Source: a virus
Virus record (IMG/VR): IMGVR_UViG_3300042398_000969
Coordinates: 32,001-96,000 of that record
Reading direction: 5' to 3' (one strand)
DNA: 64,000 nucleotides
The notes under the pieces: generated by a model
What the model was told of the DNA's origin: nothing
The model's input: only the letters and a program-made list of their open reading frames with translations
The model's database searches: none
Program-made: the position numbers and the translations under genes
Shown here: positions 2,412 to 32,921 of the stretch, one piece after another
Layout of the letters: each line of letters opens with the position of its first letter
Numbering within the stretch: the first letter of the stretch is position 1

Positions 2412-3071
2412 TTAAATCATTTTTCTGTGGGTCACATCTATTCTAACCCTTATATTTGGGGATAATATATATTTTTCATAATGGGCTTGGATTAATTTTA
2501 ACCCCAAATATTCCAATAAGTCGTTTATTGTACCCTCATCGTGCTTTTCATATATATCTTCGTAATAAAATAATGGGTATTTTTTATTTTGTGATAGGTT
2601 ATGTAAAATATCACTAGATTCGTTATATCTTTTAATCATAGTTTCAATATATGAAGGTTTAATTTTTGTCATGTCATATATTTTTGGGACATGCCATCCA
2701 ACCCCTCTTTCCCTACTCCATGTTTCATTGATAGTAAAACTTTCCGCCTGATGAGTTTTATTTTTTCTATCTAATATCACAATTTTATCAAAGAATGTGT
2801 CACACCATTCAAAATATTCATGTACATTATTGAAGTTTTTTCTTGGGAATTCGTCATAACCAACGATTAATAAGTTTTTTACTAAAATATTATCATAACT
2901 TAATAACGGTTCTATTGTGTCACAATCAAATTTATCAAAATAATCTTTATAATTAGAATCGTTATATGGTTCCATAAACATTTTGTAATTCGGTAATTCT
3001 ATATGCGAATCAATAAACTTAGTCAAGGACGTTGACCCACTTCTTGGGGTTGCCAATATTAAAATTTTCAT
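2412..3071 (-). CDS. Sulfotransferase-like protein (PAPS-binding P-loop fold)
   Basis: N-terminal ATPRSGSTSL 5'-PSB-like loop, EP motif, DR...QAES 3'-PB-like segment, FYYED; paralog of 7487..8104. Confidence 0.65.
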   Translation of the reverse strand: MKILILATPRSGSTSLTKFIDSHIELPNYKMFMEPYNDSNYKDYFDKFDCDTIEPLLSYDNILVKNLLIVGYDEFPRKNFNNVHEYFEWCDTFFDKIVILDRKNKTHQAESFTINETWSRERGVGWHVPKIYDMTKIKPSYIETMIKRYNESSDILHNLSQNKKYPLFYYEDIYEKHDEGTINDLLEYLGLKLIQAHYEKYILSPNIRVRIDVTHRKMI

Positions 3072-3586
3072 AAAAGATTTCTAGATTTCATTCTAAACTT
3101 ATGTATAAACATAGCAATTGCCCATCGTTCTCCGTTTATGATTGGGGTAACTTGGTGTGGTGTTTGGGATTGGTATATGCACACGTTACCTATCTTTTTG
3201 TCGATAAATATAGGTTTATCATTTTCATCGAATACTAAATAATCTCCTCCTTCAAAATCTTCGTTTAATATAATACCAACATTCCATTCCTTTATAGGGG
3301 TTCCTGTATCAATGTGTTTACTGAACTCATCTCCTGATGTATAGTGATGTAAGTTTAACTTTGTCGGTCTTAAAAAAATGTGTAGATTCGTTTCTTTTTC
3401 GAAATAATTACACATTCTATCAATAACCCAATCGATATCGGGTAGGTAATCCAATGCATAAAATTTGTATCTAAAATTGTTAAATTCATCCCATCTACCA
3501 TTGTCACCTAATAATGGGTATTTATCTTTTAAATTTATAATAGATTCACATTCGTCTTTTGTAAATAGGATAGATTGTATTAACAT
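3068..3586 (-). CDS. 2OG-Fe(II) oxygenase (prolyl-hydroxylase-like)
   Basis: HID, LNEDFEGG, HQVTP, GERW facial-triad/2OG-binding pattern. Confidence 0.85.
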   Translation of the reverse strand: MLIQSILFTKDECESIINLKDKYPLLGDNGRWDEFNNFRYKFYALDYLPDIDWVIDRMCNYFEKETNLHIFLRPTKLNLHHYTSGDEFSKHIDTGTPIKEWNVGIILNEDFEGGDYLVFDENDKPIFIDKKIGNVCIYQSQTPHQVTPIINGERWAIAMFIHKFRMKSRNLL

Positions 3587-3614
3587 TTTCTTTATTTATA
3601 TGTTGTTGAATTAC

Positions 3615-4292
3615 TTATATTAGTGAAGTATAATTTTCTTTTCTAATATTTCTAATTTCTTTTATTAGTTGATTATTTGTACCATATTCGGAATGTGGTT
3701 TCCAATTAGTGCCCATCTGAATATATTGAAGTTCTGCATTCCATCTATTTTTATCAACACCGATAATATCTATGGTTTTAGCATATTCACCAGTCAACCA
3801 CCAAAAGTTACCTGAATAAATTATATTTTTAGAGTTATTTACGGTTTCCAATAAAACACCGTATGTGTTAAAATCGGTTCTATCAAATATTTTAAGTACA
3901 TTTTTAACTCTTTCAATGTTAAAATATTGCATTAAATTTCTCCAATTTGACTCCCTATTGTATTTATTTTTGTTTTTTAATTTGGATGCCCCTTTAGTAT
4001 GAAAATAAAAAATATAATCCGAATTTTCAAATATCTCTTTATCTTTTTCTATTAAATTTAAAGTAACAAATTCGTTTCCTCTTGGGTAAATGTCTCTTAT
4101 TATATAATTTGATTTATTGTAATCATGAAATTTTCTTATAATTGAGTCGGTTGGCGGATTATCGTCTGATATTGAGATACCTACATTTAAAATATATGGG
4201 AAATTAAAGTGTTTTTCTATTAAAGAGATTTGTTCATCAATTATTGACTCCACTCCTTCTATTGAATATATGTGATAATAAATTCTTACCAT
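3615..4292 (-). CDS. Putative glycan-modifying/glycosyltransferase-like protein
   Basis: YFHTKG and YSGNFWW motifs, RgpF-like in character; cluster context. Confidence 0.45.
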   Translation of the reverse strand: MVRIYYHIYSIEGVESIIDEQISLIEKHFNFPYILNVGISISDDNPPTDSIIRKFHDYNKSNYIIRDIYPRGNEFVTLNLIEKDKEIFENSDYIFYFHTKGASKLKNKNKYNRESNWRNLMQYFNIERVKNVLKIFDRTDFNTYGVLLETVNNSKNIIYSGNFWWLTGEYAKTIDIIGVDKNRWNAELQYIQMGTNWKPHSEYGTNNQLIKEIRNIRKENYTSLI

Positions 4293-4329: not shown

Positions 4330-4989
4330 TCATAAAAATTTCACTTTTTTATTGTTATTATAATTTTTAATTAAATCATAAAGATAATTAGACATTTGTT
4401 CGTGACCATGTTCGCTAAAGTGTTTGTCAGATATTTCACCATTTGTTTCATCAAATATTGTTTCTATTTTTTGTGTGATTGGTGTAACAAGCATACCATC
4501 GGTTTCTTGTTTATATGGTGACCAATTAATAATAACGTTATTTGGGTACATTTGATCAATCAATCTAATATATCTGTTTATCTCATCAATATAAATTTGG
4601 TTATTTCTATTAACAACGATTTCATTTAAACAATCAACACAAATATCTGTCATATAAATGATATCGTTTAATTCATCGTTGCTTAAACTATTTGGTCTAA
4701 TTGTTAAGAAATTACCTTTTTTGGATACAATTCTAAATCTTATTGTTGATGACCACCCAATAATAATAATATCATTCGAATTAATTCTACTTAAACTATC
4801 AATTACGGTATCGATAATTGTATAATTATCTGCACCACTAATCCCCATGTTTCTATAGGTAATATTTAATTTATTGGATAAAAAATCTGAAAATACTTTT
4901 GGTACATACCCCTTCCTTTCAACATAACTAGGAACTAGTCGATTATTTTTGGCCGAGAATGAGTCGCCAAAAACCCACAGCTTTGACAT
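4330..4989 (-). CDS. SGNH/GDSL-fold acyl esterase/transferase-like protein
   Basis: FGDSFS block I, G-x-x-G-A-D-N block II, DKHFS block V. Confidence 0.7.
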   Translation of the reverse strand: MSKLWVFGDSFSAKNNRLVPSYVERKGYVPKVFSDFLSNKLNITYRNMGISGADNYTIIDTVIDSLSRINSNDIIIIGWSSTIRFRIVSKKGNFLTIRPNSLSNDELNDIIYMTDICVDCLNEIVVNRNNQIYIDEINRYIRLIDQMYPNNVIINWSPYKQETDGMLVTPITQKIETIFDETNGEISDKHFSEHGHEQMSNYLYDLIKNYNNNKKVKFL

Positions 4990-5000
4990 AAAATAACTAA

Positions 5001-5123: not shown

Positions 5124-6527
5124 TTAAATTTTTTCGAATCGGTTATGCGCAATTACATTAGCCAATAAATTAGCTCCAGTTATACTATTTGAATCGGTAC
5201 CTGCAATGAATACGTCATCCGGTTCTATGTTAATTGTTGTAATATTACCACTATACCATTCTAAATTTATTGATGTAATTTCTGCGGTTACCTGATTTGA
5301 AATAACCAATGAATCAGTGTCTTCAATATCAGTAACTATTTTAAATTTAACTAATCCAGTATTATTTTCTTTAATTAGTAGTTTCTCATTTGTAGTTACC
5401 AATGTACTACCAGTTGATGATTGGAAAGAATATTCAATTTTAGGAAGCCACCCTTGAAATGTGGTGGTTAATTTGTTAACAACTGACGCAGTTGAATATG
5501 TAATTAATTCAGAAATTTCTAATGTAGAAGACCAATTTAAACTTTCATTAGATTTCTCATTTTTATCTAATCCAACTAAAGAAACAGATTTAACGATATC
5601 ACCAATTTCAAGTGAATTTAAATCAACAGAAATTTCTTGATCATCAACAATTTTAATAACATCATATTCACTAGGTATACCAATAGAATTTACTGGATTA
5701 GAGAAATACATAGATCTCCATTTGTTGTCTAATTTAGTGTTAGTGTATGTAGCATTATTTTCATCTAGAGACACCGGATTGGTGTAAACACATCCGCCTA
5801 AATAAATCATAGTTTCGACATCTTCTAACAGTAATGTCCAAGTTCTTATGACATTCGAAATTTTACCGTTTACTAAGGTATTCTCATTAAATTCATATTC
5901 TTGTAACATATTTGTACCGTTAACCGTTGATTTTAAATCATTTAAATCGGTTTCTGTATCAATTTTATAAAATGCCGGATATTCGGTTTTTTCAAAATCA
6001 GGTAATGTCTTTTTAAAAATTATATTTGGGTTTTGATTATTATCAACTAAGTCGTTCAAATTATCGAACATTTTACTATCGTCACTTAAATCTCTAACGC
6101 ACGTTTTTGGTAAAAGGTCTTCGTGATTAGACTCAAATAACAATTTTACCATTTCTGCTTTATCTCGGCAATATATATCATCGATAATTGCGGTAGAATC
6201 ATATGCACATCTCAAATAAAAAGTAGTACTTTCGACATTTACCGATGGGGTTGTTATATCATTATTATTAATAACAATTAGTTCAAGTTCTATGTTATTA
6301 CTATCACAAGCGGATTGAAACTGGTTTATTACAGATTGTCCAATATGTCTCTTTTTATAAACAATAACCAACTTGGTGTACGTATTTGTGGTCAAATATG
6401 TCATTAAATTATCCAATTCCAACAAATGGGACGCCGATTCGTGTAAATCAACGTCTGTGTTTGTTTCCAAAAACTTTATATTGTCCCCCAACTTCAAAAA
6501 ATCGGAGCCTATTAAAACTGCTTTCAT
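5124..6527 (-). CDS. Circularly permuted ATP-grasp-like ligase fused to a C-terminal Hint-like domain
   Basis: N-terminal GSDF...KFLETNT (metal-binding D...ExN at the N-terminus, as in CP-ATP-grasp enzymes), CRDK, LLPKT, NIIFKK, MLQEY. C-terminal LEIGDIVKS...TINIEPDDVFIA...VIAHN followed by RFEKI. Confidence 0.6.
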   Translation of the reverse strand: MKAVLIGSDFLKLGDNIKFLETNTDVDLHESASHLLELDNLMTYLTTNTYTKLVIVYKKRHIGQSVINQFQSACDSNNIELELIVINNNDITTPSVNVESTTFYLRCAYDSTAIIDDIYCRDKAEMVKLLFESNHEDLLPKTCVRDLSDDSKMFDNLNDLVDNNQNPNIIFKKTLPDFEKTEYPAFYKIDTETDLNDLKSTVNGTNMLQEYEFNENTLVNGKISNVIRTWTLLLEDVETMIYLGGCVYTNPVSLDENNATYTNTKLDNKWRSMYFSNPVNSIGIPSEYDVIKIVDDQEISVDLNSLEIGDIVKSVSLVGLDKNEKSNESLNWSSTLEISELITYSTASVVNKLTTTFQGWLPKIEYSFQSSTGSTLVTTNEKLLIKENNTGLVKFKIVTDIEDTDSLVISNQVTAEITSINLEWYSGNITTINIEPDDVFIAGTDSNSITGANLLANVIAHNRFEKI

Positions 6528-6646: not shown

Positions 6647-6859
6647 TTACTTATCGTTTAACCCATATTTTATCCATTTATACCAAATTCTTTCGTGTAA
6701 ATAATATTGGATAGGTTTATATACCAATTCAGCAATCCCAAAAGCGGTACCTATTTTATAATCACCACTTACCCACCAAACTATAGCAAAACCAACTAGA
6801 GTTGATATAATTCGGTATGAGATTGTTTTAGCTATGTGTCTTTTCCTTTGTACTATCAT
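6647..6859 (-). CDS. DUF2061-like small membrane protein
   Basis: KTISYRI...YYLHERIW pattern with hydrophobic segments; this family is often found next to cysC. Confidence 0.7.
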   Translation of the reverse strand: MIVQRKRHIAKTISYRIISTLVGFAIVWWVSGDYKIGTAFGIAELVYKPIQYYLHERIWYKWIKYGLNDK

Positions 6860-7503
6860 ATCAATTTTTTTATATCTGAACGTTTAACAAACGATTTACC
6901 ATCAAATGTGGTATATTTCAATTCATATCCATGTCTAAATGCCCTGTTATTACTATATGGTAGCGATTCCACCTCATCTGACGTTAGTTTATGTCTAACC
7001 GCGTTAAAAATTTGATTTTCAACAGGAGTTTGAAAAAAACCGACAATGGTTCCATCTTTACAATTTGGTTTTACATAATCTAAAAATTTAGAAATATTTG
7101 GGTCCAAATGTGTATCATGTAAAATACCATCAAACTTTGATTGTAGTGTTGGTAGGACATCGACCCAATCACCTAAAATTATTTTCACATTTGGTTTGTC
7201 TTCAGCCCATTGTAAAGCATTTTTAAACATCTCAGGATGGATTTCAATTATTATGTGTGACGTCACATTTGGGTTAGATTGAACAGCGTCAGCTGACAAA
7301 TGCATGCCGAATCCAATTTCAAGTATGTCTCCACCATTTTTTGTAACTATATCGGCTAACTTATACATCAAAGATTCTTCACCATTGTGCATCACATAGT
7401 CATTTTTTAATCCATCTATTCTAATATCATTAGTGGATATTGATATTTTTTCGTCTCCTTTCATAATTAATTTTGAATACAAATTTTCATAAAAATTTAT
7501 CAT
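6856..7503 (-). CDS. Class I SAM methyltransferase, GAMT/Rmt2-like
   Basis: VM...EE..M, ILEIGFGM, HIIIEIHP, GDW, FDGILHDT. Confidence 0.75.
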   Translation of the reverse strand: MINFYENLYSKLIMKGDEKISISTNDIRIDGLKNDYVMHNGEESLMYKLADIVTKNGGDILEIGFGMHLSADAVQSNPNVTSHIIIEIHPEMFKNALQWAEDKPNVKIILGDWVDVLPTLQSKFDGILHDTHLDPNISKFLDYVKPNCKDGTIVGFFQTPVENQIFNAVRHKLTSDEVESLPYSNNRAFRHGYELKYTTFDGKSFVKRSDIKKLI

Positions 7504-8104
7504 ATTTTTCTGAAATTCTTACCTTTTTATCATCTGATATTAACCAATTATTAATCGATTCTTCAATGGGTTTTAATTCCAAATAATCAAAAATTTCATT
7601 TATTACTGAGGTGTTTTTATTAACAAAAATATCCTCATAATAATATATTTTTTTATTATAATTTTCTGAAAATGATTCTAACGCATCTGAAACAACTATC
7701 AAATTTAGTTCCCATTCATTAAATGTATCTTTAGGGATTGAATTTAAATAATAAACTCGTTTTCTTTTGTGTCTATCTTTAATTTTATTTACGGTGTGAT
7801 ATATAAAACTTTCACTTTGTTCTATTTTGTTTATTCTATCAAGAATAATAACTTTATCAAATGTTTCGAAAATAGATTCATAAAATAATTTCGAATTTTC
7901 TTTGACATTTGATGGTGTTTGACCCAATAACATTTTAAGTAGAACATTTTTATCGTCATCACAAAATGATAGATTTTCTTCAATTTTATAATGTCGGTCT
8001 AGGGGTTCCTCCAAGAAAGTATAATCATCAGTTAAGTGTTCTTTAATACAATTAAATAATGATGATGATCCACATCTACCTGATGCCATTATACATATTC
8101 TCAT
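7487..8104 (-). CDS. Sulfotransferase-like protein
   Basis: SGRCGSSSL loop, EEP, LDR...EQSES, YYED; paralog of 2412..3071. Confidence 0.65.
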   Translation of the reverse strand: MRICIMASGRCGSSSLFNCIKEHLTDDYTFLEEPLDRHYKIEENLSFCDDDKNVLLKMLLGQTPSNVKENSKLFYESIFETFDKVIILDRINKIEQSESFIYHTVNKIKDRHKRKRVYYLNSIPKDTFNEWELNLIVVSDALESFSENYNKKIYYYEDIFVNKNTSVINEIFDYLELKPIEESINNWLISDDKKVRISEKYDKFL

Positions 8105-8484
8105 TACCCTTTAGTTTTATCATATGTTATTTTCCCATCTGAAGTCATATGTCCCGTTCTAATTGCGGTACCACTAATTTGTCCAATATCGGTTGGTGGT
8201 TCGTGGTAAATTACATCATACCCAACTCCTCTACCATAATTTACGGATTCAATATCGGGAATAATTGATAATAGAATTTTATTAAAGTTTTCATTGAAAA
8301 ATGGTTCCTGTATTAACATCTGAAACACCTCTTGAGCGGTCTTTGGGTTGTTTTCATCCACCTCAACATCTCTAATTGCCACCCACACATTCTTACCTTT
8401 TTGTAATTGTTGGTTAATAAGCCATTCGTGACCTTTGTGCCAATTTTGCCATCTTCCGATGTACATTGCGTACTTTTTACTCAT
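8104..8484 (-). CDS. HIGH-class nucleotidyltransferase (cytidylyltransferase-like; candidate minimal ATP sulfurylase)
   Basis: GRWQNWHKGH (HxGH) and ISGTAIR motifs; translationally coupled to cysC. Confidence 0.7.
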   Translation of the reverse strand: MSKKYAMYIGRWQNWHKGHEWLINQQLQKGKNVWVAIRDVEVDENNPKTAQEVFQMLIQEPFFNENFNKILLSIIPDIESVNYGRGVGYDVIYHEPPTDIGQISGTAIRTGHMTSDGKITYDKTKG

Positions 8485-8915
8485 AGTGATAATTTTTTTA
8501 ACAGTTCATAATATGAATCTGTTTCGTTTTTTATTGTTGTGTCTATATCTATAAAATTCTCTAAAGGTGGTTCGTACTCCCCAACATGGAATTCATTCCT
8601 ACCTCTATCCTCTGTGGTGTGCACATAAATCTCAACAACCGATGTGCTGAACTTAAAAGACTCTCTTTGGTCTCTATACGGTGAAACTAAGGACACAATT
8701 ACATTATGTCCTTTACTGTGCATGAATTGTGCAATGTATTGTGCTCTTTGGATGTTTAATCTTCTTCCTGTGATGGAATAGTCTTTATTCTTAAAGATGT
8801 CTCTTAGGTCGTCTCCATCGATGTGAATAACCTTGTCTTTAGGGAAATATTCTACTAAGTATTTTGCTAGGGTTGTTTTACCTGCTCCGGGTTGCCCTGT
8901 TAACCAATATATCAT
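8481..8915 (-). CDS. cysC: Adenylyl-sulfate (APS) kinase
   Basis: WLTGQPGAGKTT P-loop, IDGDDLR, DYSxxGR, SLVSPY, YEPP. Confidence 0.85.
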   Translation of the reverse strand: MIYWLTGQPGAGKTTLAKYLVEYFPKDKVIHIDGDDLRDIFKNKDYSITGRRLNIQRAQYIAQFMHSKGHNVIVSLVSPYRDQRESFKFSTSVVEIYVHTTEDRGRNEFHVGEYEPPLENFIDIDTTIKNETDSYYELLKKLSL

Positions 8916-9072: not shown

Positions 9073-9776
9073 ATCAATTTAATTATTCTTGTTTCATTAT
9101 AAATATCCTTTATATATGCAACTCTGGTCTCATTTAAAAATGTGTAAAATAATTCGGCTAATAAAAGATTTCCCTTTTCACCAAAATGACCGTCATTAAC
9201 CAACCCTTCCGTTTCTTGTTTAATAGATGTAATATTTCCTCTTTTATATAGGTAACCTAATTTCATTATGTTTATGATACCTTTAGATTCTCTTAATGGA
9301 TCAAAAAGTGTCCAAAAATATACTTTATATCCATCTAACACCATTTTAAATAAATTAACATAGTTTTCAAATTCTTTCGCAAAAAGAGGATGCATCCTAT
9401 TCGTCAATATTTCAGATATAGTGTCACTCGATACTGATAAGTTGTCATTACGCCCACCAACCGCTATTGACCTAAAATTAATTTTATCAACAATCCTAAA
9501 ACGAGACGTATCAGTTAGACCAACAAAAATGACATCATTTTCTTTGTCAAATTTTTTAATTTGGTAAAAAAGTGTTTCAAAAATACTATAGTTATCCGAA
9601 CCACCCATTCCATGGTTTTCTAGTTCTAAGTTTAATTTTTCTGCCAATATTTGACTAAAGTTCTTTGGTTCATAACCTAAATAATCAATGTATGGTTTTA
9701 TCCAATCTTGTAATTTCATTGTTCTATCTGTATATAAAGCAGAATTAGAATCTCCAAATACCCATAATTTACCCAT
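9069..9776 (-). CDS. SGNH-fold protein
   Basis: FGDSNS, GMGGSDN, DGHFG. Confidence 0.7.
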   Translation of the reverse strand: MGKLWVFGDSNSALYTDRTMKLQDWIKPYIDYLGYEPKNFSQILAEKLNLELENHGMGGSDNYSIFETLFYQIKKFDKENDVIFVGLTDTSRFRIVDKINFRSIAVGGRNDNLSVSSDTISEILTNRMHPLFAKEFENYVNLFKMVLDGYKVYFWTLFDPLRESKGIINIMKLGYLYKRGNITSIKQETEGLVNDGHFGEKGNLLLAELFYTFLNETRVAYIKDIYNETRIIKLI

Positions 9777-11443: not shown

Positions 11444-12270
11444 TTAGTTATGTTGTGTGCGTTTTTAATTTCTTGGTTTATTATTTTAAAAAATGTTTCA
11501 TGTCCCCTAAGATCCCAATGACAGTCATTAACCTGTTTTCCCGTTGAGTAATATATTGAATTTTTATATGAACAAAAATTATACTTTAAAGGTTTCCATA
11601 TTATGGCATCTTCATCATATTTATTCCATAATCCCTTCTCACCATGATGTAAATTGATAAATCCTTTAGTGTTTACTAACCTATCATGTATATGTGTTTT
11701 TTCAAATAATGGTTCGATTTCTTTGTTATATCCAAACTGATATGGGTTCCAAAACCAATGAATTGGTTTAATGTTTTTCTCTTCTAATAATTTATTAACA
11801 ATATCAATCCAATTTAGTAGCTCATGGGCTGAATTTGGGTGATTTTCTTTATAAAGTAACCACTCTTTGAAAAATAATATATCTTTATTTCTTAAATTAC
11901 TCATGACAAGTTCATCGTTTTCAAAATTCATCAATATCGGTAAAAACAATTCTTCTCCAGTAACAAAATTATTAGTCTTCTCATATGACCTAACTCTATC
12001 TAATGTAGTCCAACCAAATATTGCTATATCATTTTCCTTTAATTCTGGTATTCTTCGAAGTACACTCTCAAAAAGTGTTAAATTGTCTGAACCTGGTATG
12101 GAATAAACCTGTACTTCTTTACCTGTTTCCTTTAATAACTCAATCCAATCTTTTGGAATATCTCCATTTTCTAAACATACCTTTAAATAATCGGTACAGA
12201 ACCTTAAATCCAAGTTATAATTAAAATGGAATGGTGTTGAAAATGAATCCCCAAATATTCTAATTGACAT
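11431..12270 (-). CDS. SGNH-fold protein
   Basis: FGDSFS, PGSDN, DCHW...GH. Confidence 0.65.
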   Translation of the reverse strand: MSIRIFGDSFSTPFHFNYNLDLRFCTDYLKVCLENGDIPKDWIELLKETGKEVQVYSIPGSDNLTLFESVLRRIPELKENDIAIFGWTTLDRVRSYEKTNNFVTGEELFLPILMNFENDELVMSNLRNKDILFFKEWLLYKENHPNSAHELLNWIDIVNKLLEEKNIKPIHWFWNPYQFGYNKEIEPLFEKTHIHDRLVNTKGFINLHHGEKGLWNKYDEDAIIWKPLKYNFCSYKNSIYYSTGKQVNDCHWDLRGHETFFKIINQEIKNAHNITKWNM

Positions 12271-12272
12271 AA

Positions 12273-16914: not shown

Positions 16915-16915
16915 T

Positions 16916-24634: not shown

Positions 24635-25851
24635 ATTGATTTTATTTCATTTTCAATCCATGGACTCACACTTCTAAAGTCACTATTTCTCAGCACATCT
24701 AATTTCTTCACAAAATCTAATGTATTGTGCTCCGTTCTTGTTGGTTCGAAAACATTTAAATAATTAATAAACCCGTTTAGATCGTCCTTTATTTTTTGTG
24801 TTAACGTTGTATCTTTTGCTACGTTCTCAGTAATAAAATTCCTAACTTTAACTTTAAACTCTTCGCTGGTATTTCCAACAGACAAATGATATGGATATGT
24901 TACCCATTGTGTCATAACATTATCGAAAAACAAATCTTCTTGTTTGATATAATCGATAAAATCAAAAAAGTGAAACACATTAAAGATCGATATGGTGAAG
25001 TTAAAAGAGAAACTAATTGAATGATATTTCGTTTTGCTTAAATCTCTTAACTTCTTTACATTAGCGAAGAACTTCTCATGTGAGAATCCTGTTCTAATAT
25101 ATTCACCCATTTCACCATAGCCGTCACAAGAAACAACCATGTGACAGTTTTTAAAGTTTGATAACAATTCTAATATATCTGTTTTCTTATACATAAGATT
25201 TGATAGATTAGTATTAATAACAATTTCACATTCTTTCGCATTTGGAAGCAACTGATTTAGATATTGAAATGTCTCATCCATGATCAATGGTTCACCACCA
25301 GCCAAATATACCCAGTTTAAATTGTTTGTATGTTTATCCAGCTTCTGTACAAAATTATCACCAATCTTTATTGACTTGTTATCCATGTTCACAACGTGAT
25401 TAGGATAAACTATTTTAGCATCCTCATACCAGTTTGTTGAATAGATCGGTGCACACATTCTGCACGAGAAATTACATAGGTTGGAAAATCTTAAGTCAGT
25501 TGATTTTAACTTGGAGATGTTATAATTTTCATCCACCAATTCTTGGGATAAATCAACATAGTTTTTACCAGTGATTCTTTCCCATAGGTTATTAAAATCA
25601 TTTCTCATCCCATGACCATTCTTGAAACAAATGTCACATACTTTTGGCTTCTCGCCGTTTAGCATTTGCTTACGTAATTCTAAGAATTTTGGGTGGTTGA
25701 TAACATCATCAATATCACCCTCATTAACAGAAATATCCCAGCCGTCTGATATACAGCAGGGAGCAACTAAACCATCTGTTCTAACAAATAAATGTAGAAA
25801 AGGAAGAATACATATTGATTCTTTTAAAACATCATCTCTATCCATGGACAT
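24631..25851 (-). CDS. Radical SAM enzyme with N-terminal twitch/SPASM-like domain
   Basis: CILPF...PCC...CDIC; CNFSCRMC; LAGGEP. Confidence 0.9.
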   Translation of the reverse strand: MSMDRDDVLKESICILPFLHLFVRTDGLVAPCCISDGWDISVNEGDIDDVINHPKFLELRKQMLNGEKPKVCDICFKNGHGMRNDFNNLWERITGKNYVDLSQELVDENYNISKLKSTDLRFSNLCNFSCRMCAPIYSTNWYEDAKIVYPNHVVNMDNKSIKIGDNFVQKLDKHTNNLNWVYLAGGEPLIMDETFQYLNQLLPNAKECEIVINTNLSNLMYKKTDILELLSNFKNCHMVVSCDGYGEMGEYIRTGFSHEKFFANVKKLRDLSKTKYHSISFSFNFTISIFNVFHFFDFIDYIKQEDLFFDNVMTQWVTYPYHLSVGNTSEEFKVKVRNFITENVAKDTTLTQKIKDDLNGFINYLNVFEPTRTEHNTLDFVKKLDVLRNSDFRSVSPWIENEIKSI

Positions 25852-27017
25852 ATATTTTTGTAACTTGTGTTTCTCATTAGATCTAATTTTTGAAAATAAA
25901 CTTTTAAATCATTTCTATGAAAATCTCCTTTAATTATTTTTGAATCAATTCTAACATAATCTTTAAACGTTTGCATGATATCATATATGTTAGAAGCATA
26001 TTGTTTTTTCGCTAAGTTCTCGTCAATATAATTGATTACCTTTTCTTTAAATTCATCTGGTGCAGCACCAACCGCAAAATAGTATGGTGTTGTCGCCCAA
26101 TGAAAATGCATCTTCTCCTGTGGTAAATAACCATTACCGGAAACATAATCAATAAAGTCAAAGATATGAAATATATTCATCAATGTTATTGTATATTCAA
26201 TTTCAGCATAAACATTTTTATGTGTCTTATTGAACTCAACAATTTTACTTAAATTATTGAAGAACTTTTCTGAAACAAACCCAGTTCTCTGAAATTCTCC
26301 AACCTCACCATAACCATCACAAGAACAACCAATGATAACATTGTTGAATTTCTTAAGTTCCTCTAATACATCTCTGTCTTTGTACTTTAGTGTGGATAGA
26401 TTGGTGTTGATATACATGTTAATACCTTTAGCTTGCTCTTCACCAAAACGATCAAGTAATTTAAAGATATTATCATTGATAAATGGTTCACCACCAGCTA
26501 AGTATAAGTGGTGTATGTGTTTTAAATCTTCATCTGTGAACTTATCAACCGGGTCTTTACCAATATCAATAAATTTGGTATGTGAATCAGAGAATCCTTT
26601 CCCATATATCTCAGTTAGGTCATCATGCCATGATGATGATAAGCTTGGGCCACACATTCTACACTTAAAGTTACATAAATTAGAAAATCTAACATCTAGA
26701 TATTCCAATCTGTTAACGCTATAATCAGGATTTATCAATGTTGGGTCATCCATTTTGTGTGACCACATTTTATTCCAATTATCCTTTAACGTGTTACCTT
26801 GTTTAAAGCACACATCACATGATCTAGGTGCCGTACCTTCGTCCATTTCTTTTCTTAGTTGTTTAAACTGTTCGCTATTAAACAACTCCATGATTGTTGG
26901 ATAATCATTAAAATTCAAATCCTTATCGAATTTGCTTGATATACAACAAGGTCTAACTGACCCATCTGGATCAACATAGATTGATGTATAACCTAATACG
27001 CATTGTGTACTTTTCAT
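25824..27017 (-). CDS. Radical SAM enzyme with N-terminal twitch/SPASM-like domain
   Basis: C...PCC...CDVC; CNFKCRMC; LAGGEP; tandem paralog of 24631..25851. Confidence 0.9.
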   Translation of the reverse strand: MKSTQCVLGYTSIYVDPDGSVRPCCISSKFDKDLNFNDYPTIMELFNSEQFKQLRKEMDEGTAPRSCDVCFKQGNTLKDNWNKMWSHKMDDPTLINPDYSVNRLEYLDVRFSNLCNFKCRMCGPSLSSSWHDDLTEIYGKGFSDSHTKFIDIGKDPVDKFTDEDLKHIHHLYLAGGEPFINDNIFKLLDRFGEEQAKGINMYINTNLSTLKYKDRDVLEELKKFNNVIIGCSCDGYGEVGEFQRTGFVSEKFFNNLSKIVEFNKTHKNVYAEIEYTITLMNIFHIFDFIDYVSGNGYLPQEKMHFHWATTPYYFAVGAAPDEFKEKVINYIDENLAKKQYASNIYDIMQTFKDYVRIDSKIIKGDFHRNDLKVYFQKLDLMRNTSYKNICPWIEMMF

Positions 27018-28423
27018 TTCATTTTTACATTTATAAATTTAGTGTTTGGGTATAAGCTATCGTCGACATTTACTATCTCCATAGTATCCAAAACATTTTT
27101 TAAACCATCTTCTTTATAGTTTATCTTTCCTTGTTGCATTTCTGTAACAAATCTTTTTTCATTTCTTGCAGTTGTTTCACCTTTAGCCCATCTACCATGT
27201 ATAAACCCCTCGTCAACATGTGGCAAACAATAAAATTTACCTTCTCTTCTATATGGAATAATATTTTCAATTATTTCAATATCTTCAGTAGTTAGATTAA
27301 CGTTTTGTCTAATTACGTCTTGGCTATTCATATCCATATTTAAAATAAGATTTTCTGTGTTTGTATAAACATCCTCTACGTTGTTGAAAAACTTATCATA
27401 AATTTTAAAATCAGATATTTTACCTTTAAATCTTGTATTACTATGTGAACAAAATCCTAACAAGAACGGTTTAACCGAATCGTGAGTTTTTAAATGTTCT
27501 TTGATTTGAAATGGAACATTTTCTTTAGTTCCACTTCTTTGTGATATAAGTTCATCATTTACATAAATGTACACACTTTTTTCTTCTGAATTATAACTAA
27601 GTGTTACTTGTGTCCACATTCCTTCAAATCTTTTTGCCCAGTTGTAATGTCTCATGTTTGTTCTATCAAACACAGTAACCGTTACTGCTCTAGAATTGTT
27701 GAAAGATAAACCCCATGTCCAGCTACCATCTTTTCTTAATATTGGATATTCAATAAATTGTTTATTTTGATCCCCTACTAGCCAAATTGGTACCTTATTC
27801 TCTTGTTGTTCAGCATTAAATGTTAAAGTTATTGTGTGATCGTTATGTAAGCATGAACTAATTTCTCTATTTGTTGGTACATATATTGCAGAATCATCCC
27901 CATTAAAAGTTGCTATTAACTTATCTTTTTCTGTTTTTATAATTCTACCGGTAGTCAATCCCTCAAAATAACATCTCCAGAATAAATCATCATCTTCTTG
28001 TCCCCAGTCCCAATATTCATTTGAATATCCATTGGTATTATATGCTTGTTCTTTGTTAAATAAAACAACCCCACCGAAGTACTGATCATAACCCAATCCA
28101 TAGTTGTACTTTGATAGTTTTGTAGCAATGTGTAGTGGGAAGTTTTCTGGGTATGCATAACTAACACCAACCTCTTCTTTGTTATAAACTAACATATCCA
28201 CGTCATGCCAAGCCACATAGTCACATCCATCTTCAAAAGCGTGGTGTGCAGCAATGTTTTTCATTGCACCTCTGTTAAATAATTTATCATCAACTTGATG
28301 ACCAACATAAAATGTGTGATCAATACCCTGATTAGTTAGTTCTTTTGACAGATGTGGTATTAAAGACTCAATATGTTCTTTTCTATTTCTGTATGGTATG
28401 CATATACCTAATTTATGACTCAT
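27014..28423 (-). CDS. GT7 (beta-1,4-galactosyltransferase-like) glycosyltransferase with inserted LamG domain
   Basis: IPYRNR, FNRG, HDVD, YFGGV, NGYSNEYWDWGQEDDD; then LamG-like FNG...IYVND...FKGKISD; then GT7 tail PH...DGL. Confidence 0.85.
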   Translation of the reverse strand: MSHKLGICIPYRNRKEHIESLIPHLSKELTNQGIDHTFYVGHQVDDKLFNRGAMKNIAAHHAFEDGCDYVAWHDVDMLVYNKEEVGVSYAYPENFPLHIATKLSKYNYGLGYDQYFGGVVLFNKEQAYNTNGYSNEYWDWGQEDDDLFWRCYFEGLTTGRIIKTEKDKLIATFNGDDSAIYVPTNREISSCLHNDHTITLTFNAEQQENKVPIWLVGDQNKQFIEYPILRKDGSWTWGLSFNNSRAVTVTVFDRTNMRHYNWAKRFEGMWTQVTLSYNSEEKSVYIYVNDELISQRSGTKENVPFQIKEHLKTHDSVKPFLLGFCSHSNTRFKGKISDFKIYDKFFNNVEDVYTNTENLILNMDMNSQDVIRQNVNLTTEDIEIIENIIPYRREGKFYCLPHVDEGFIHGRWAKGETTARNEKRFVTEMQQGKINYKEDGLKNVLDTMEIVNVDDSLYPNTKFINVKMK

Positions 28424-29847
28424 ATTCCAATTATTGCGTGATATGTTTTATTGTCCCTCATTAAACCATGTTGCACAAAGTCTAAATCAGATAGCCCGTC
28501 GTTATATAACAACTCTTTATTTATTGATACCTCATTTAAAAATCTAAGTTGATTCCATCTAGTCGCCTGATCTTTCCATTTTGTACCAAGAAACCCATTT
28601 TGTTCATGTGGTAAAGATTTAAATAAAGAGGGTCTTCTATATGGTATTTTAACCTCTGTAAATTCATCATAATTACTATCAACAATTTCACATTTTATTA
28701 TGATACCATTATTACCATTGCCAGATAAATCTACCAATTGATAGTTTTCGATGAAATTAACATCATAATATGTTTTTAGGTCTAATGATGATTTATATCT
28801 TTTAAAATTATTTGTTAAATCTTCGTTTTCGTTTGTTGAGATATCAAAAACCTCGTCACTTTCTAACATGTCATCAAAATAAGCAAACCTATCAATCGTT
28901 CCTCTAAAATAATTTTCAGTTTTTTCTCTATTTGGATTACCAACACCTAAATAAAAAAATTCTTCTTTTTTATAAAAATGTAACTTTTTAAAAACTGGTG
29001 TTTCCCCAATAAAAACACCATCTTGATAAACCTTTATAATTTTTTCATCCCTATCTAAAACAACCGTCATGTTTGTTTTGTAATTAGGTTTTATTTTTGA
29101 ATTCACATACAATGCGTTATGTGAAATATCAAATGCACAAAAATTATATCTCGAAAATGAATTATAGCAAATAGCAAAATCCCAACCAGGAATACTAAAA
29201 ACTGTAAACTCATCAGTTTCTCTAGTGTGATCTAAATTTAGTTTATCTGGATAAAATGAAATAAAAAAAGTAGCGTTTGAATTTAAATTAATAATGTTTT
29301 TACATTTAACAAAAGCATTATTACCATTGAATCTTAAAGACTTACCATTTCTACCAAAGTTTTTTATTTTTAATGAATCTAAATTAATGTTGTTCTCCTT
29401 ACATCTTAATAATAAATCATCATCTTCATATCCCCAAGCCCAATACTTATTTGAATACCCATTTATTTTTTTAAAATCCTCAACTGGAAACATTGTAACT
29501 CCACCAAAATATTCTTCAAACATGTCTCTTTCTTTTTCGTCATTTTCATATTCGAAATTTGTAGATAAATGAAGTGGTTTATCACTATAAGAATAATCAA
29601 CCTCTGATGGTATCATATCAATATCATGAAACACAACATAATCACATTTGTGCTCTAGTGCATACTTAAATCCAATATTAAGTAACATACCTCTATTGAA
29701 TTGCTTAGCACCATCTTGTTCAACGATAAAAATATTGTGGTCTATCCCATTTTTACTGAGATAAAACGGCATCAATCTTTTAAACTTAGAAAGTTGTGAT
29801 AATCTATCTCTGTAAGGTACAATAACACCGAGTTTATGTTTATCCAT
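28420..29847 (-). CDS. GT7 glycosyltransferase with inserted LamG domain
   Basis: VPYRDR, FNRG, HDID, YFGGV, NGYSNKYWAWGYEDDD; LamG-like SLRFNG...FRGTID...DLSGNGNNG; then PH...DGL. Confidence 0.85.
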   Translation of the reverse strand: MDKHKLGVIVPYRDRLSQLSKFKRLMPFYLSKNGIDHNIFIVEQDGAKQFNRGMLLNIGFKYALEHKCDYVVFHDIDMIPSEVDYSYSDKPLHLSTNFEYENDEKERDMFEEYFGGVTMFPVEDFKKINGYSNKYWAWGYEDDDLLLRCKENNINLDSLKIKNFGRNGKSLRFNGNNAFVKCKNIINLNSNATFFISFYPDKLNLDHTRETDEFTVFSIPGWDFAICYNSFSRYNFCAFDISHNALYVNSKIKPNYKTNMTVVLDRDEKIIKVYQDGVFIGETPVFKKLHFYKKEEFFYLGVGNPNREKTENYFRGTIDRFAYFDDMLESDEVFDISTNENEDLTNNFKRYKSSLDLKTYYDVNFIENYQLVDLSGNGNNGIIIKCEIVDSNYDEFTEVKIPYRRPSLFKSLPHEQNGFLGTKWKDQATRWNQLRFLNEVSINKELLYNDGLSDLDFVQHGLMRDNKTYHAIIGI

Positions 29848-30031
29848 TTATTGTTGGGTCCTTTGGTTTAGCAATGTTATGCCATTCAGCTAAATAATAT
29901 TGAATTCTATCACTCCACTCTTGTTTGTCGATCTCTTCAAACCAAATGGTCAACGCATCTAATGAATTAGCAATCTTTTCTAGTGCTTTTACTTTCTTTT
30001 GCTCTAACGCAAATTCTTCTTCTTTTGTCAT
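29840..30031 (-). CDS. Small hypothetical protein
   Basis: 63-aa ORF overlapping both neighbours. Confidence 0.65.
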   Translation of the reverse strand: MTKEEEFALEQKKVKALEKIANSLDALTIWFEEIDKQEWSDRIQYYLAEWHNIAKPKDPTING

Positions 30032-30630
30032 AATAGTTTTTTTGTTTTTATGTTATTTTTATTTAACACATATGATAACGCAGCACCTTCTCCACTACCG
30101 ATGATACCTTTATCACCCTCATGTAGTATACTTAACGTTTCAAATATAGGTTTTAATAATTCTAGTTCACAAATTAATTGTGTTGCAGGTAATGATTTAG
30201 GTAAGTAAATAAAATTTTCTTTAATTGTTTCACTATCTAAATGGATATCATCAATCATATCCTTAAACATACCAAATCTAACATCATCAAGATCTTTTAA
30301 TGTTCTTTTTGGCCAGTTTTCTAAGTATACAACAAATTTTTCATTCGGATTAATCTCTTTAATCCAATATAATAAATTATCATTAAATAACTCATCAGCA
30401 TCGATATATAAAACATCCTCTCTATACTCTTCCACTATCCTTAACGCGTGTAATATTTTATCAAAATATGAGAATATTTTATTCTTATATTCTACTGTCA
30501 AAACATCGGTAAACATATCTACATTGTTTGTTAACACAATGGAATCATTTTTAAATGATCCATTTCTACTCAAAAAATCGCTTAAGATTTTTGAATATGA
30601 TAACCCAACTGAAACAAACGCGTACTTCAT
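30028..30630 (-). CDS. DxD glycosyltransferase-like protein
   Basis: VLTN, FSYFDK, YIDAD, GSGEG; paralog of 32196..32921. Confidence 0.55.
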   Translation of the reverse strand: MKYAFVSVGLSYSKILSDFLSRNGSFKNDSIVLTNNVDMFTDVLTVEYKNKIFSYFDKILHALRIVEEYREDVLYIDADELFNDNLLYWIKEINPNEKFVVYLENWPKRTLKDLDDVRFGMFKDMIDDIHLDSETIKENFIYLPKSLPATQLICELELLKPIFETLSILHEGDKGIIGSGEGAALSYVLNKNNIKTKKLL

Positions 30631-31475
30631 TATATTGCAATTATGTTTTTAATTAAATTATCCCAAGGTCTATATGATCTGTATCTACCCTCGCATTTCT
30701 CAAACATAAATTCCGGATTATTTAGATCTAGTCTAAATCTACTTTTTCTTAATTGATCATACATTAATTTATATTCTTGTGAATACGCATATTCTTGTTT
30801 AAGATTAGCAACTGCTTGTATTCTTTCTATTGATGTTGCGTCCCACTTAAAATGGTGAACCTGAACATACGAATGTTGATTAATTAATGGGTGATTCCAA
30901 CCCTGCCATCTCCAAGTTGTTTCACCGTTTATTTTTGCATAATGCTGACCAGACGTTAGTTCAATGTGACCTTTCATCACACAAACTTTATTAGGGCAAG
31001 CCTTACTCATTGGGTACCTAAAGAATCCCGCATTTGGAAATTGATCGAATAAAGAAACATCTGGTATTATTTCAGAGAACTCACCATTCTCACCAATTCT
31101 GTCTATGAATCCACCTCTAACTAATTGATAACCAAACTTTTCGCAGTTATCCACCAGATAACGTAAATTATCATTCGGATATAAATGAAGTTCGTCGATA
31201 TCAGCAATTACCCACCAGTCATTTGGTTTTTGTGATTTAATAAAATTGTATAATTTGGTAACCTTATCCCAATCAAATATTCTATCTTTGATTACTTTGA
31301 TAATCTTTACATTATCTTGATTACCAATGATTTGTGAAACATCAATGGATAATTGTGGATACATATCCGTTTCATAAACAGCAATATTAATCTCATCAAC
31401 ATATTGTTGATAATGCTTTATAAAATGTGGAAGTAAAGTAGTTCCGTGACCAATAACTGTTAAAAGCCTAATCAT
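30630..31475 (-). CDS. GT-A (GT2-like) glycosyltransferase
   Basis: LPHFIKHY, WWVIADIDE, GGFIDR, GQH, VHHFKW. Confidence 0.75.
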   Translation of the reverse strand: MIRLLTVIGHGTTLLPHFIKHYQQYVDEINIAVYETDMYPQLSIDVSQIIGNQDNVKIIKVIKDRIFDWDKVTKLYNFIKSQKPNDWWVIADIDELHLYPNDNLRYLVDNCEKFGYQLVRGGFIDRIGENGEFSEIIPDVSLFDQFPNAGFFRYPMSKACPNKVCVMKGHIELTSGQHYAKINGETTWRWQGWNHPLINQHSYVQVHHFKWDATSIERIQAVANLKQEYAYSQEYKLMYDQLRKSRFRLDLNNPEFMFEKCEGRYRSYRPWDNLIKNIIAI

Positions 31476-32217
31476 ATCTCCTGTTAATAATGGTTATACC
31501 ACTTGATGATGGTTTATCCATTAATATACGGAAATTGTGTAAATTAATCAAGTTCCAGGCCGGATTTTTTTGTAGTTCTTTGACTAACCTACTAGGGCCA
31601 TCAAACCTGTGGTGATCTTTTTTTGCGTCTTCTGAAATGATTAACGTTTCTTCGTACTGATCGTCAGTATCATGAAGAATGATGACACCCTTTGGTGACA
31701 ATATTGTTGAATATAAATCAAAGTCTTGTTTAACACCCTCATATGAGTGGTCCCCATCGATAAATAATAAATCTATTTTAATATCCTGTCTAATAAAAAA
31801 ATCATGATACGCGTCGAGAGAAGTTGATTTAATAAATCTCGGATAAAAATTCTTGCGGTAGAATGAATCTTCATTATCCAAATCGTTAGGGCCACCGATG
31901 CCATTGCAAGCATCAACAACGTAAGTAGACCCAATGTCACCCCAGTTATAGTCTCCATTTCCTTCAAATATATTTTGTTTATGTAAATCAATTCTAGCTT
32001 GTGTCATGATTCTAGGTATAAATCCACCACCAGACCCAATACAAACGCATACCTTGGTTCTCATCTGTTGAATCAATGAATATACAACAATACCATCACC
32101 GATATGAAGATCGGTTGCACCGTGTGTCCAACGATATGGTACCGGTTCATCACCATTGTTGGTGATATTGTTTTTTATAAATTCATTATTACTTATCATC
32201 TCATCCATCTTGGCCAC
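31468..32217 (-). CDS. Class I SAM methyltransferase (Methyltransf_24-like)
   Basis: IGSGGG, LFIDGDHSYEGV, GVIILHD; the true start may be a downstream Met. Confidence 0.8.
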   Translation of the reverse strand: MAKMDEMISNNEFIKNNITNNGDEPVPYRWTHGATDLHIGDGIVVYSLIQQMRTKVCVCIGSGGGFIPRIMTQARIDLHKQNIFEGNGDYNWGDIGSTYVVDACNGIGGPNDLDNEDSFYRKNFYPRFIKSTSLDAYHDFFIRQDIKIDLLFIDGDHSYEGVKQDFDLYSTILSPKGVIILHDTDDQYEETLIISEDAKKDHHRFDGPSRLVKELQKNPAWNLINLHNFRILMDKPSSSGITIINRRYD

Positions 32218-32921
32218 TGACTTTGTGGTGTATGTCTTCTACTTATACTTATCATCTTACCTTCTAATAACTTATACAATTCAATGTCTCTTTCTATTTC
32301 AATATTAGTAGACTTACAACTTATTTGTATTGATATACCTTCTCCGGCACCACTAATTTCTTTTTTTAATGGAAGATCCGAATATTCTTTTACTAGTTGT
32401 AGTTTTTCATAATAATAGTAAAATGATTCCATATCAAATCCATCTTTATTAATCACTAAAAAATATTCCCACATTGTTTCAAGATTAAAAAATGGTGGAT
32501 ATAATTTAGATGCATATTCGACATATGGTTTCCACTCAGGATTTGTTTCATTAAGTAATTCTTTTACAATTCCTTTTTTTGCACTATGATTCAATAAAGT
32601 ATCGATGTACGAAACTCCCTTTTTGAAACTATATGTTTTTAATAATTCTAAGAATGTATAATCTGTGACGTGGGTATCAGCATCAAGTAAGATGCAAATG
32701 TCATGATTTTTTAAGATGTATTTTGGTAATATCATCTTGTCTGAATATGATTTTAAGTTCCTATCATATTGAATTGTTGTAACATCAGTAAACTCCTCAG
32801 GTTTATCTGTAAGTACATACACAGATAACCCAACACTTAATAAATGTTTGATTTTTTCTTTAGTTCCTCTGTAATAGTAATCTTGACCAAAGCAAAATAT
32901 TCCAAATCCTATGTTATTCAT
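32196..32921 (-). CDS. DxD glycosyltransferase-like protein
   Basis: VLTD, SYSDK, LLDAD, GAGEG. Confidence 0.55.
   Translation of the reverse strand: MNNIGFGIFCFGQDYYYRGTKEKIKHLLSVGLSVYVLTDKPEEFTDVTTIQYDRNLKSYSDKMILPKYILKNHDICILLDADTHVTDYTFLELLKTYSFKKGVSYIDTLLNHSAKKGIVKELLNETNPEWKPYVEYASKLYPPFFNLETMWEYFLVINKDGFDMESFYYYYEKLQLVKEYSDLPLKKEISGAGEGISIQISCKSTNIEIERDIELYKLLEGKMISISRRHTPQSQWPRWMR

Follow-up and report, generated by a model that had tools for sequence, protein, structure and literature searches.

A putative glycan-building and tailoring island with a conserved core in the fibre array of an uncultured lake phage

What does a phage make with some 30 kb of glycosyltransferases (GTs), radical S-adenosylmethionine (radical SAM) enzymes and genes for sulfate, carbamoyl and acyl chemistry placed in the middle of its fibre genes? 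The question is raised by a window of 64,000 nucleotides, bases 32001-96000 of the 169,422-bp IMG/VR virus record IMGVR_UViG_3300042398_000969 (GC 0.32). Positions 2412-32921 of this window, here called the island, hold 34 co-oriented minus-strand open reading frames (ORFs). An earlier note on this DNA proposed that these genes assemble, in the cytoplasm, a sulfated, carbamoylated, acylated, methylated and radical-edited glycan on the virion fibres, using the nucleoside diphosphate (NDP) sugars of the host. That the island is a phage-encoded system for building and tailoring a glycan in the cytoplasm is well supported. It is made of two parts, a conserved eight-gene core (~8.5 kb) and a hypervariable remainder of roughly 25 kb. 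That the phage's own fibre or tip proteins are decorated late in infection, with a conserved inner glycan and a fast-diversifying outer chemistry, stands at about even chances.

By its gene content, the source is an uncultured myovirus-type jumbo phage from a lake and not a cellular capsule or lipopolysaccharide (LPS) locus, because PHROGs matches in the genome include a DnaB helicase, a class I ribonucleotide reductase, a UvsX-like recombinase, SbcC and a gp6-type baseplate wedge. The record is about 50% complete according to CheckV, and 144 of 157 ORFs lie on the minus strand. The closest cultured phages share only 25-28% identity in the baseplate wedge. Many metagenomes of lakes and fresh water contain the same sequence. 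Contigs identical to it, from independent lake samples, span the junctions between radical SAM and GT7 genes, between the island and the adjoining C1q-like genes, and between these genes and the fibre, so the arrangement of the island is no assembly chimera.

The two parts of the island become visible when relatives are compared. A search with one GT7 protein yielded 45 IMG/VR loci (33-67% identity), and all window proteins were mapped onto these. One gene order recurs: a variable 'slot' gene, a methyltransferase, a GT of the GT-A fold, a 63-aa protein, two GT7 enzymes carrying a laminin G-like (LamG) segment, a radical SAM enzyme, a LamG-like protein of ~195 aa and a second type of radical SAM enzyme. 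The window copies, all on the minus strand, are listed here in descending position.

32196-32921, minus strand: GT-A-like 'slot' gene (w32196), invariant DAD motif; elsewhere the slot is DUF6734 or family 17
31468-32217, minus strand: core methyltransferase, PF13578 E 4e-13, found in 38 loci
30630-31475, minus strand: core GT-A glycosyltransferase (w30630), assigned by AlphaFold2 model and Foldseek, invariant D-x-D-E
29840-30031, minus strand: 63-aa helical protein, found in 37-43 loci
27014-29847, minus strand: tandem GT7 genes (β4GalT-like) with inserted LamG, assigned by Pfam and motifs; 2413 homologs, same architecture
23258-24634, minus strand: radical SAM enzyme with an N-terminal twitch domain (N-twitch), most conserved core type, NF033640 342 bits, 51-60% identical in 44 of 45 loci
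22641-23261, minus strand: stand-alone LamG-like partner of the core radical SAM enzyme, family found in 35 loci
16916-18235, minus strand: N-twitch radical SAM enzyme, second conserved core type, NF033640 308 bits, orthologs of ~49% identity in most loci

The slot is filled by DUF6734, by a gene like w32196 or by a third family. One locus (L023) has exactly the eight core genes, no slot gene and opposite-strand neighbours on both sides. What follows the core varies from locus to locus and includes extra radical SAM enzymes, SGNH proteins and unassigned ORFs. NAD-dependent sugar epimerase/dehydratase genes occur in the islands of 13 loci, and UDP-Glc/GDP-Man dehydrogenase genes in 5.

A second set of 20 relatives was gathered by way of the baseplate wedge. 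All four of those that are at least 60% complete contain the GT7 pair; the records without the pair are fragments of 45% completeness or less. Against the close relative G001, protein identity is 85-98% for the backbone, 61-85% for the C1q-like genes and the core, and 51% for the downstream fibre. From 27,000 down to 2,400 in the window, nucleotide similarity to G001 is near zero, except for the APS-kinase/nucleotidyltransferase pair (85%) and a DUF2061 gene (75%). As proteins, these three (6647-8915) are 74-94% identical in G001, with everything around them replaced. In two more distant relatives (G002 and G003) the island is ~14 kb and consists of the core, four unassigned ORFs, a carbamoyltransferase and a gene like w5124; it is bracketed by fibres, one of them of 4057 aa. 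Such hypervariability is typical of exposed structures.

The tandem GT7 enzymes are the firmest of the glycosyltransferases. Both paralogs score above the Pfam gathering thresholds for PF13733 and PF02709 (58-73 bits, cut-offs 23-27) and also match Laminin_G_3. The catalytic part matches β4GalT7 and β4GalT1 (E 2e-28) with the HDxD and WGxEDDD motifs kept, and in 71 family members H74, D75, D77, W138, G139, E141 and D142 are at least 95% conserved. The order of the Pfam matches suggests a LamG domain appended at the C-terminus, but the sequence places it inside the catalytic domain: in both enzymes a LamG-like segment of ~230 aa sits between WGxEDDD and the point where the GT7 sequence resumes as PYRR...H...RF...DGL. 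Three residues after the insert (R404, H414 and G451) are again at least 95% conserved in the 71 homologs. In β4GalT enzymes the C-terminal elements form the metal-binding His loop beside the acceptor site. As judged from sequence, the island GT7s belong to the family by its residues and break its contiguous catalytic-domain architecture. Databases hold 2413 homologs of this GT7-LamG type; none is functionally named among 120 listed, and no homolog was found in the records of cultured phages.

Four further proteins have, or resemble, the GT-A fold, which with the GT7 pair gives six GT-like proteins, in line with the earlier note's count of about six. The core GT-A enzyme w30630 gives an AlphaFold2 model with pLDDT (predicted local distance difference test) 75, for which Foldseek returns LARGE1, chondroitin synthase, SunS, XT1, SpsA and viral GT2 enzymes. 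DUF6734 (w21481), for which the top Foldseek rows are all GT-A, has VIA Z scores of 10.5 with SetA, 10.3 with glycogenin and 7.8 with the capsid GT of PBCV-1. By such model comparison this Pfam family, in which a DxD is invariant, appears to comprise GT-A glycosyltransferases of the GT8/glycogenin type. The remaining two, w32196 and w30028, are leads: they share an invariant DAD motif, and the named look-alikes in the Atlas all belong to the GT-A clan. With hhalign, the w32196 family and DUF6734 aligned in the DxD region only. Sequence and profile searches of the PDB were uninformative for the core radical SAM enzyme, the core GT-A, the w32196 family, DUF6734, the sulfotransferase-like family and w5124. 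Protein-directed enzymes are among the fold neighbours of the island GTs (β4GalT7, XT1, SunS, glycogenin, SetA and Skp1 GalT); as a suggestion only, this favours a protein acceptor.

All seven radical SAM enzymes of the earlier note are present. Five of them pass the curated cut-off of NF033640 ('N-terminal twitch'; 170 bits) with 284-342 bits, and the two short paralogs score 35-57 bits. The signature searched for (the CX3CX2C cluster, the GGE SAM motif and the N-terminal Cys residues of an auxiliary cluster) is complete; C139/C143/C146, G208-P211 and C24/C43/C85/C88 are at least 90% conserved among 98 members, and all seven window copies carry them. The 23258-type enzyme has at least 6853 homologs. 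Both signature families, this one and GT7-LamG, abound in metagenomes, on contigs of up to ~310 kb. Nothing on the function of NF033640 or on this cassette was found in the literature. N-twitch genes with 37-45% identity are also seen in metagenome-assembled genomes of predatory Bdellovibrionota, often as 2-5 paralogs per locus. The surroundings there are housekeeping genes (DNA polymerase III tau, a HAD phosphatase, an outer membrane protein) and further radical SAM paralogs, with no GTs. The Ralstonia phage RsoM2USA has a single N-twitch enzyme (41% identical) and a carbamoyltransferase at another place in the genome, all annotated as hypothetical, and no GT7.

LamG modules lie on or beside both enzyme classes, the GT7s and the radical SAM enzymes. 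The stand-alone LamG-like protein shows a weak laminin LG match (E 0.03) together with a characteristic D.SGN.N motif. These modules would serve as acceptor-binding adaptors common to both classes; shared adaptors in turn point to a common macromolecular substrate rather than to free nucleotide sugars. In the 63-aa protein, the sole conserved small ORF, a helical centre is invariant, the ends vary and Cys is absent. The protein is unlike the precursor of a ribosomally synthesised and post-translationally modified peptide (RiPP), and no other precursor-like peptide was seen.

Between and beyond the core genes lies the variable set, also entirely on the minus strand.

30028-30630, minus strand: GT-A-like paralog of the 32196 gene (w30028), by paralogy and DAD motif
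24631-27017, minus strand: two more N-twitch radical SAM enzymes, NF033640 304 and 284 bits
21481-22644, minus strand: DUF6734 protein, predicted GT-A fold (GT8/glycogenin-like)
20240-21481, minus strand: N-twitch radical SAM enzyme, NF033640 314 bits
18236-20247, minus strand: two short radical SAM paralogs (332 and 337 aa), below the NF033640 cut-off
16153-16914, minus strand: oxygenase of the Asp/Asn β-hydroxylase family, PF05118 E 1.4e-14
15433-16152, minus strand: SGNH-like protein 5, by paralogy and motif blocks
14562-15455, minus strand: 297-aa protein, no family assignment
13186-14565, minus strand: 459-aa protein of a phage-only family, no family assignment
12273-13196, minus strand: SGNH-like protein 4, divergent, GDS block, aligns with the family
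11431-12270, minus strand: SGNH-like protein 3, by paralogy and motif blocks
9776-11443, minus strand: NodU/CmcH-type carbamoyltransferase, E 1e-65 and 1e-57, phage homologs
9069-9776, minus strand: SGNH-like protein 2, by paralogy and motif blocks
8481-8915, minus strand: adenosine 5'-phosphosulfate (APS) kinase, PF01583 E 4e-17, 94% identical in G001
8104-8484, minus strand: 126-aa HxGH nucleotidyltransferase-like protein, NMNAT/cytidylyltransferase family below cut-offs, 79% identical in G001
7487-8104, minus strand: sulfotransferase-like protein B, 31% paralog of the 2412 protein, motifs
6856-7503, minus strand: methyltransferase, weak Pfam match
6647-6859, minus strand: DUF2061 small membrane protein, E 1.7e-15
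5124-6527, minus strand: 467-aa protein w5124, homologs of 27% identity in the G001, G002 and G003 islands, no Pfam, NCBIfam or PDB match
4330-4989, minus strand: SGNH-like protein 1, GDS block and D-x-H
3615-4292, minus strand: 225-aa protein, no Pfam or NCBIfam match
3068-3586, minus strand: 2-oxoglutarate (2OG)-Fe(II) oxygenase of the prolyl-4-hydroxylase type, PF13640 E 1.9e-10, HxD motif at residue 91
2412-3071, minus strand: sulfotransferase-like protein A, PF00685/PF13469 at 19-20 bits, below cut-off, paralog of the 7487 protein, PRSGS[TS] and R..S motifs

Most of what the earlier note had counted here stands: about 35 coupled genes (34 by the present count, with 27 of the 33 internal junctions overlapping or no more than 2 nt apart), a carbamoyltransferase with a strong NodU/CmcH-type match, five SGNH-like proteins, two oxygenases of 2OG-dependent families and two methyltransferases, one of them a weak match. 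Five ORFs are left without assignment after Pfam, NCBIfam, paralogy and fold evidence. The sulfation genes need more caution. The APS kinase of the proposed 3'-phosphoadenosine 5'-phosphosulfate (PAPS) module is firm and is translationally coupled to the 126-aa HxGH protein, with DUF2061 two genes further downstream. No ATP sulfurylase is recognised; the HxGH protein might be a minimal sulfate adenylyltransferase or an activating enzyme of the CDP-alcohol type. The two sulfotransferases claimed are indeed a pair of paralogs with PAPS-loop motifs, and their Pfam hits fall below threshold. In the five SGNH-like proteins GDS and G..SN are present, and block V reads D-x-H instead of the canonical DxxH; Pfam hits cover the N-terminal part only, near or below cut-off. 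In some relatives (loci L009, L015 and L017) block I of the SGNH-like proteins reads G-C-S, not G-D-S.

The chemistry of such a set is glycan-centred, because of the six GT-like genes and the NDP-sugar enzymes in the islands of relatives, and its carbamoyl, sulfo, methyl and acyl enzymes match known oligosaccharide-tailoring sets. Since PAPS, carbamoyl phosphate, NDP-sugars and SAM with Fe-S clusters are all cofactors of the cytoplasm, the pathway must run there. Some enzymes of the variable set may work on polypeptide rather than glycan, since both oxygenase families and radical SAM enzymes of the twitch/SPASM type are more often protein-directed. For the same reason the 'radical-edited glycan' of the earlier note is only one of two readings, a modified polypeptide being the other; the radical SAM enzymes themselves are confirmed. 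A crude hydropathy scan finds no island protein with two or more transmembrane (TM) segments, in keeping with the almost entirely soluble set of the earlier note. DUF2061 is the sole membrane-type protein. Pfam scans of the island give no polyprenyl-phosphate initiating transferase, flippase, polymerase or exporter family, so the multi-pass machinery of a Wzx/Wzy- or ABC-dependent polysaccharide locus is lacking there. The hydropathy scan shows multi-pass membrane proteins to be virtually absent from 41 distinct related loci as well.

If a macromolecule is the acceptor, the proteins encoded around the island are the first to consider. The Ser/Thr-rich fibres of the earlier note, of 1709 and 1366 aa and both with 32% Ser+Thr, flank the island as described.

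35035-39135, minus strand: 1366-aa Ser/Thr-rich fibre, upstream flank, 32% Ser+Thr
32949-35033, minus strand: C1q-like trio of small paralogs plus a 94-aa gene, candidate proteins of the fibre tip, from weak C1q hits and paralogy
1-2329, minus strand: Ser/Thr-rich fibre, downstream flank, C-terminal 776 of 1709 aa, continuing beyond the window start, Ser+Thr fraction 0.32

The two flanking fibres share 63% identity over 571 aa, and further fibre genes extend to ~59.9 kb of the window. Gaps of 27-82 bp separate the island from the bracketing fibre array, the boundary at 32921/32949 being one of the spaced junctions. A related locus was counted as fibre-associated when an ORF of 350 aa or more, with 18% Ser+Thr or more and the same orientation, lay no further than 9 kb upstream of the GT7 genes. 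Of the 31 distinct loci whose sequence reaches 5 kb or more upstream, 30 have such an ORF, in many cases one that matches the window fibres, and in G001, G002 and G003 fibres bracket the island. The synteny across relatives that the earlier note had suggested checking is thus present. The space from the last large fibre to the cassette is taken up by genes for small β-rich proteins, which are the C1q-like trio in the window and, in 13 other loci, a 150-aa protein of 32% Ser/Thr. From this placement they are candidate tip proteins and candidate acceptors.

A second set of glycosyltransferases lies 14-21 kb outside the window start. It forms an opposite-strand (plus) operon at genome positions 11,185-18,063, with the order GT4, GT4, 93-aa ORF, GT2, 251-aa ORF, CmcI-like methyltransferase (of the rhamnosyl O-methyltransferase type), GT2 and NAD epimerase/dehydratase, and is 59-93% conserved in G001-G003. 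Together with the island this makes more than 10 GTs around the fibre array. The absence of nucleotide-sugar genes holds inside the island; with a phage NAD epimerase/dehydratase 14 kb beyond the window start, exclusive use of host NDP-sugars is too strong a claim. Past the 1709-aa fibre, at genome positions 18587-24227, there are three propeller-like paralogs, another radical SAM enzyme, a methyltransferase and an 8-TM permease of the DUF401/CitMHS type. With this outlying block counted, the stretch in which tailoring genes alternate with fibres exceeds 55 kb.

A working model can be put together from these parts, in which acceptor, reaction order and radical SAM role would have to be taken as proposed. 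The core would place a short glycan on a macromolecular acceptor, with the LamG modules docking the GT7s and radical SAM enzymes onto it. The variable set (extra GT-As, five further radical SAM enzymes, five SGNH proteins of the acyl-transfer or esterase type, carbamoyltransferase, APS kinase and sulfotransferases, methyltransferase and two hydroxylases) would then diversify the core product. As acceptor, the Ser/Thr-rich fibres or the small tip proteins whose genes directly precede the island are the most likely choice; they would receive the glycan inside the infected cell, no later than during virion assembly. Virions would then differ in their glycans from one relative to another, according to the variable set that each encodes. 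A bolder version can be offered only tentatively: that a freshwater clade of jumbo phages coats its fibres with a sulfated, carbamoylated, acylated glycan, with 'serotypes' among close relatives, and that N-twitch radical SAM enzymes recruited by LamG carry out a new kind of radical chemistry on the protein-bound glycan or on the fibre.

Several points weigh against decoration of the phage's own fibres. The case for a fibre acceptor is one of synteny, that is, of position and co-orientation, and Ser/Thr-rich fibres are common in phages without such genes; locus L023 has the core without adjacent fibres. Several tail and baseplate proteins of the genome are enriched in an [S/T]-G-x-T motif (z up to 15.7), but the flanking fibres show no such enrichment (z -0.2 and 1.0). 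The second GT4/GT2 operon could be the real, or the general, virion-glycosylation system, and the sulfotransferase calls, sub-threshold in Pfam, are weak. Scans for sigma-70 promoters and terminators did not yield more sites than shuffled sequence does. A freshwater metatranscriptome does contain short contigs on radical SAM, GT7, methyltransferase, w32196 and fibre genes (window 19500-39400), of which one 266-nt piece is identical to the window (in a radical SAM gene) and the others are 90-95% alike; with carry-over of DNA possible, they are a weak hint of expression. The earlier proposal of cytoplasmic glycan assembly on virion fibres accordingly keeps its phage origin, soluble enzymes, glycan chemistry and fibre synteny, and its acceptor is the part that is argued from gene position.

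Soluble GTs could equally act on undecaprenyl pyrophosphate (Und-PP)-linked intermediates of the host. In that case soluble enzymes would alter the host's Und-PP-linked O-antigen or capsule units, or its NDP-sugar pools, the product would be exported by the host's own Wzx/Wzy or ABC system, and the new surface would block superinfection or keep progeny from being caught on debris. The missing flippase does not settle the matter, since the GTs of ordinary O units are soluble too, and hypervariability would be expected under competition between phages. Homologs of the carbamoyltransferase occur in cyanophage and pelagiphage genomes, where carbamoyltransferase clusters have been discussed as LPS-type genes. 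However, the 41 loci contain no polyprenyl-phosphate GT, Gtr-type gene or membrane acyltransferase. Co-orientation and tight packing inside the fibre array suggest late expression, at which stage conversion of the surface would be of little benefit to a lytic phage. LamG, inserted in the GT7s and encoded as a stand-alone partner, suggests in addition that the system is dedicated to a macromolecular acceptor. Remodelling of the host surface is therefore regarded as unlikely, though it is the nearest competitor. A somewhat smaller chance is given to a variable half that mainly edits protein, with radical SAM enzymes, hydroxylases and possibly sulfotransferases modifying fibre polypeptides (cross-links, epimerisation, hydroxylation, O-sulfation) and the GTs then glycosylating hydroxylated or Ser/Thr sites. 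PF05118 and PF13640 are protein-hydroxylase families, the next-best NCBIfam matches of the island radical SAM enzymes are peptide maturases, and the LamG partner could recruit substrate as RiPP recognition element (RRE) domains do. On the other side are the lack of a precursor-like peptide, NF033640 being an uncharacterised family with no describing paper found in literature searches, and the fact that sugars and cofactors, too, are substrates of twitch radical SAM enzymes (BtrN, MoaA).

A free decorated oligosaccharide or glycoside, similar to a Nod factor or an aminoglycoside and acting as signal, toxin or protectant during infection, would explain the parallel with the tailoring of those compounds (NodU-type carbamoyltransferase, sulfotransferase with APS kinase, methyltransferase, acyl enzymes and twitch radical SAM). 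The island encodes no scaffold synthase (NodC-type or 2-deoxy-scyllo-inosose synthase) and no exporter, its placement in the fibre array is conserved, and the LamG adaptors again speak for a macromolecule; such a product is improbable. Least to be expected is a decorated sugar on hypermodified phage DNA. Pathways of DNA hypermodification do include phage GTs, carbamoyl groups and radical SAM enzymes, according to literature cited in PMC12619734. The GT7 and GT-A types with lectin-like LamG are not among the known DNA glucosyltransferase families, and the genes around the island are for fibres, with the replication genes a long way off. DNA is not known to carry sulfation or SGNH acyl chemistry.

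Decoration of its own fibre or tip proteins would not make this phage the first virus to glycosylate itself, as this is established for mycobacteriophages, chloroviruses and mimiviruses; the system described here would be an elaborate variant with different enzymes. Mycobacteriophage virions are glycosylated by phage GTs, and chemical evidence places the glycans at the C-terminal ends of capsid and tail-tube proteins (Freeman et al. 2023, cited in PMC12619734). As in those phages, soluble phage-encoded GTs adjoin virion structural genes in the window, and virion proteins are the proposed cytoplasmic acceptors. The neighbours here are fibres, however, and the system is known from genes alone; the set is far larger (GT7-LamG, N-twitch radical SAM enzymes, sulfation, carbamoylation, SGNH) and is split into a core and a hypervariable part. 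The 'moraphage' paper (PMC12619734) describes core GTs in another aquatic jumbo lineage that could not be tied to this clade. The capsid of chlorovirus PBCV-1 and the fibrils of Mimivirus offer another likeness: virus-encoded cytoplasmic GT-A enzymes and methyltransferases decorate the viruses' own surface proteins or fibrils, and the fold matches include the PBCV-1 capsid GT for DUF6734 and giant-virus GT2s for the core GT-A. Those viruses, in contrast, infect eukaryotes and use different GT families. No radical SAM, PAPS or carbamoyl module is known to take part in giant-virus glycosylation.

Other likenesses come from cells. The rhizobial Nod-factor set (NodU, NodH with NodPQ, NodS and NodL) combines carbamoylation, PAPS-dependent sulfation, methylation and acylation of an oligosaccharide in the cytoplasm, as the island would, with a NodU-family carbamoyltransferase in both; it differs in that neither the NodC chitin-oligomer synthase nor the NodIJ exporter has a counterpart here, the ATP-sulfurylase half of NodPQ is not identified, and the acceptor is probably a macromolecule. 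The animal proteoglycan linker and glycosaminoglycan pathway shares a GT7 nearest to β4GalT7, XT1 and chondroitin synthase as matches of the core GT-A and, as proposed here, a Ser-rich acceptor and sulfation. That pathway is luminal (Golgi) and has a contiguous GT7 domain, whereas here the LamG segment is inserted before the His loop, and the homology is seen only at the level of the GT-A and GT7 folds. Serine-rich repeat adhesins are O-glycosylated in the cytoplasm before export by GtfA/B and accessory GTs, with O-acetylation by Asp2. Sequential soluble GTs and a Ser-Asp-His acyl enzyme acting on a Ser-rich fibrillar protein resemble what is proposed for the island; the initiating GtfA/B pair belongs to a different family (GT4), and there is no accessory Sec system in the island.

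Virion self-glycosylation has been documented in a few mycobacteriophages and in giant eukaryotic viruses, not at such a chemical scale. Two abundant families of no known function, GT7-LamG and the N-twitch radical SAM enzymes, are here fixed in one conserved cassette, and its small size (eight genes) makes both the acceptor and the radical SAM chemistry accessible to experiment. The layout of core and variable genes amounts to a natural library of glycan-tailoring enzymes. The cassette raises the questions of what the radical SAM enzymes do, whether phages diversify their surface glycans, and whether such a coat affects host range, stability or decoy binding in lakes. As a minor observation, a C-terminal pattern of K/R-x-hydrophobic-hydrophobic (such as ...KKLI, ...KKLL, ...KFL and ...KLI) recurs in many island enzymes that are not related to each other, in a region that is AT-rich.

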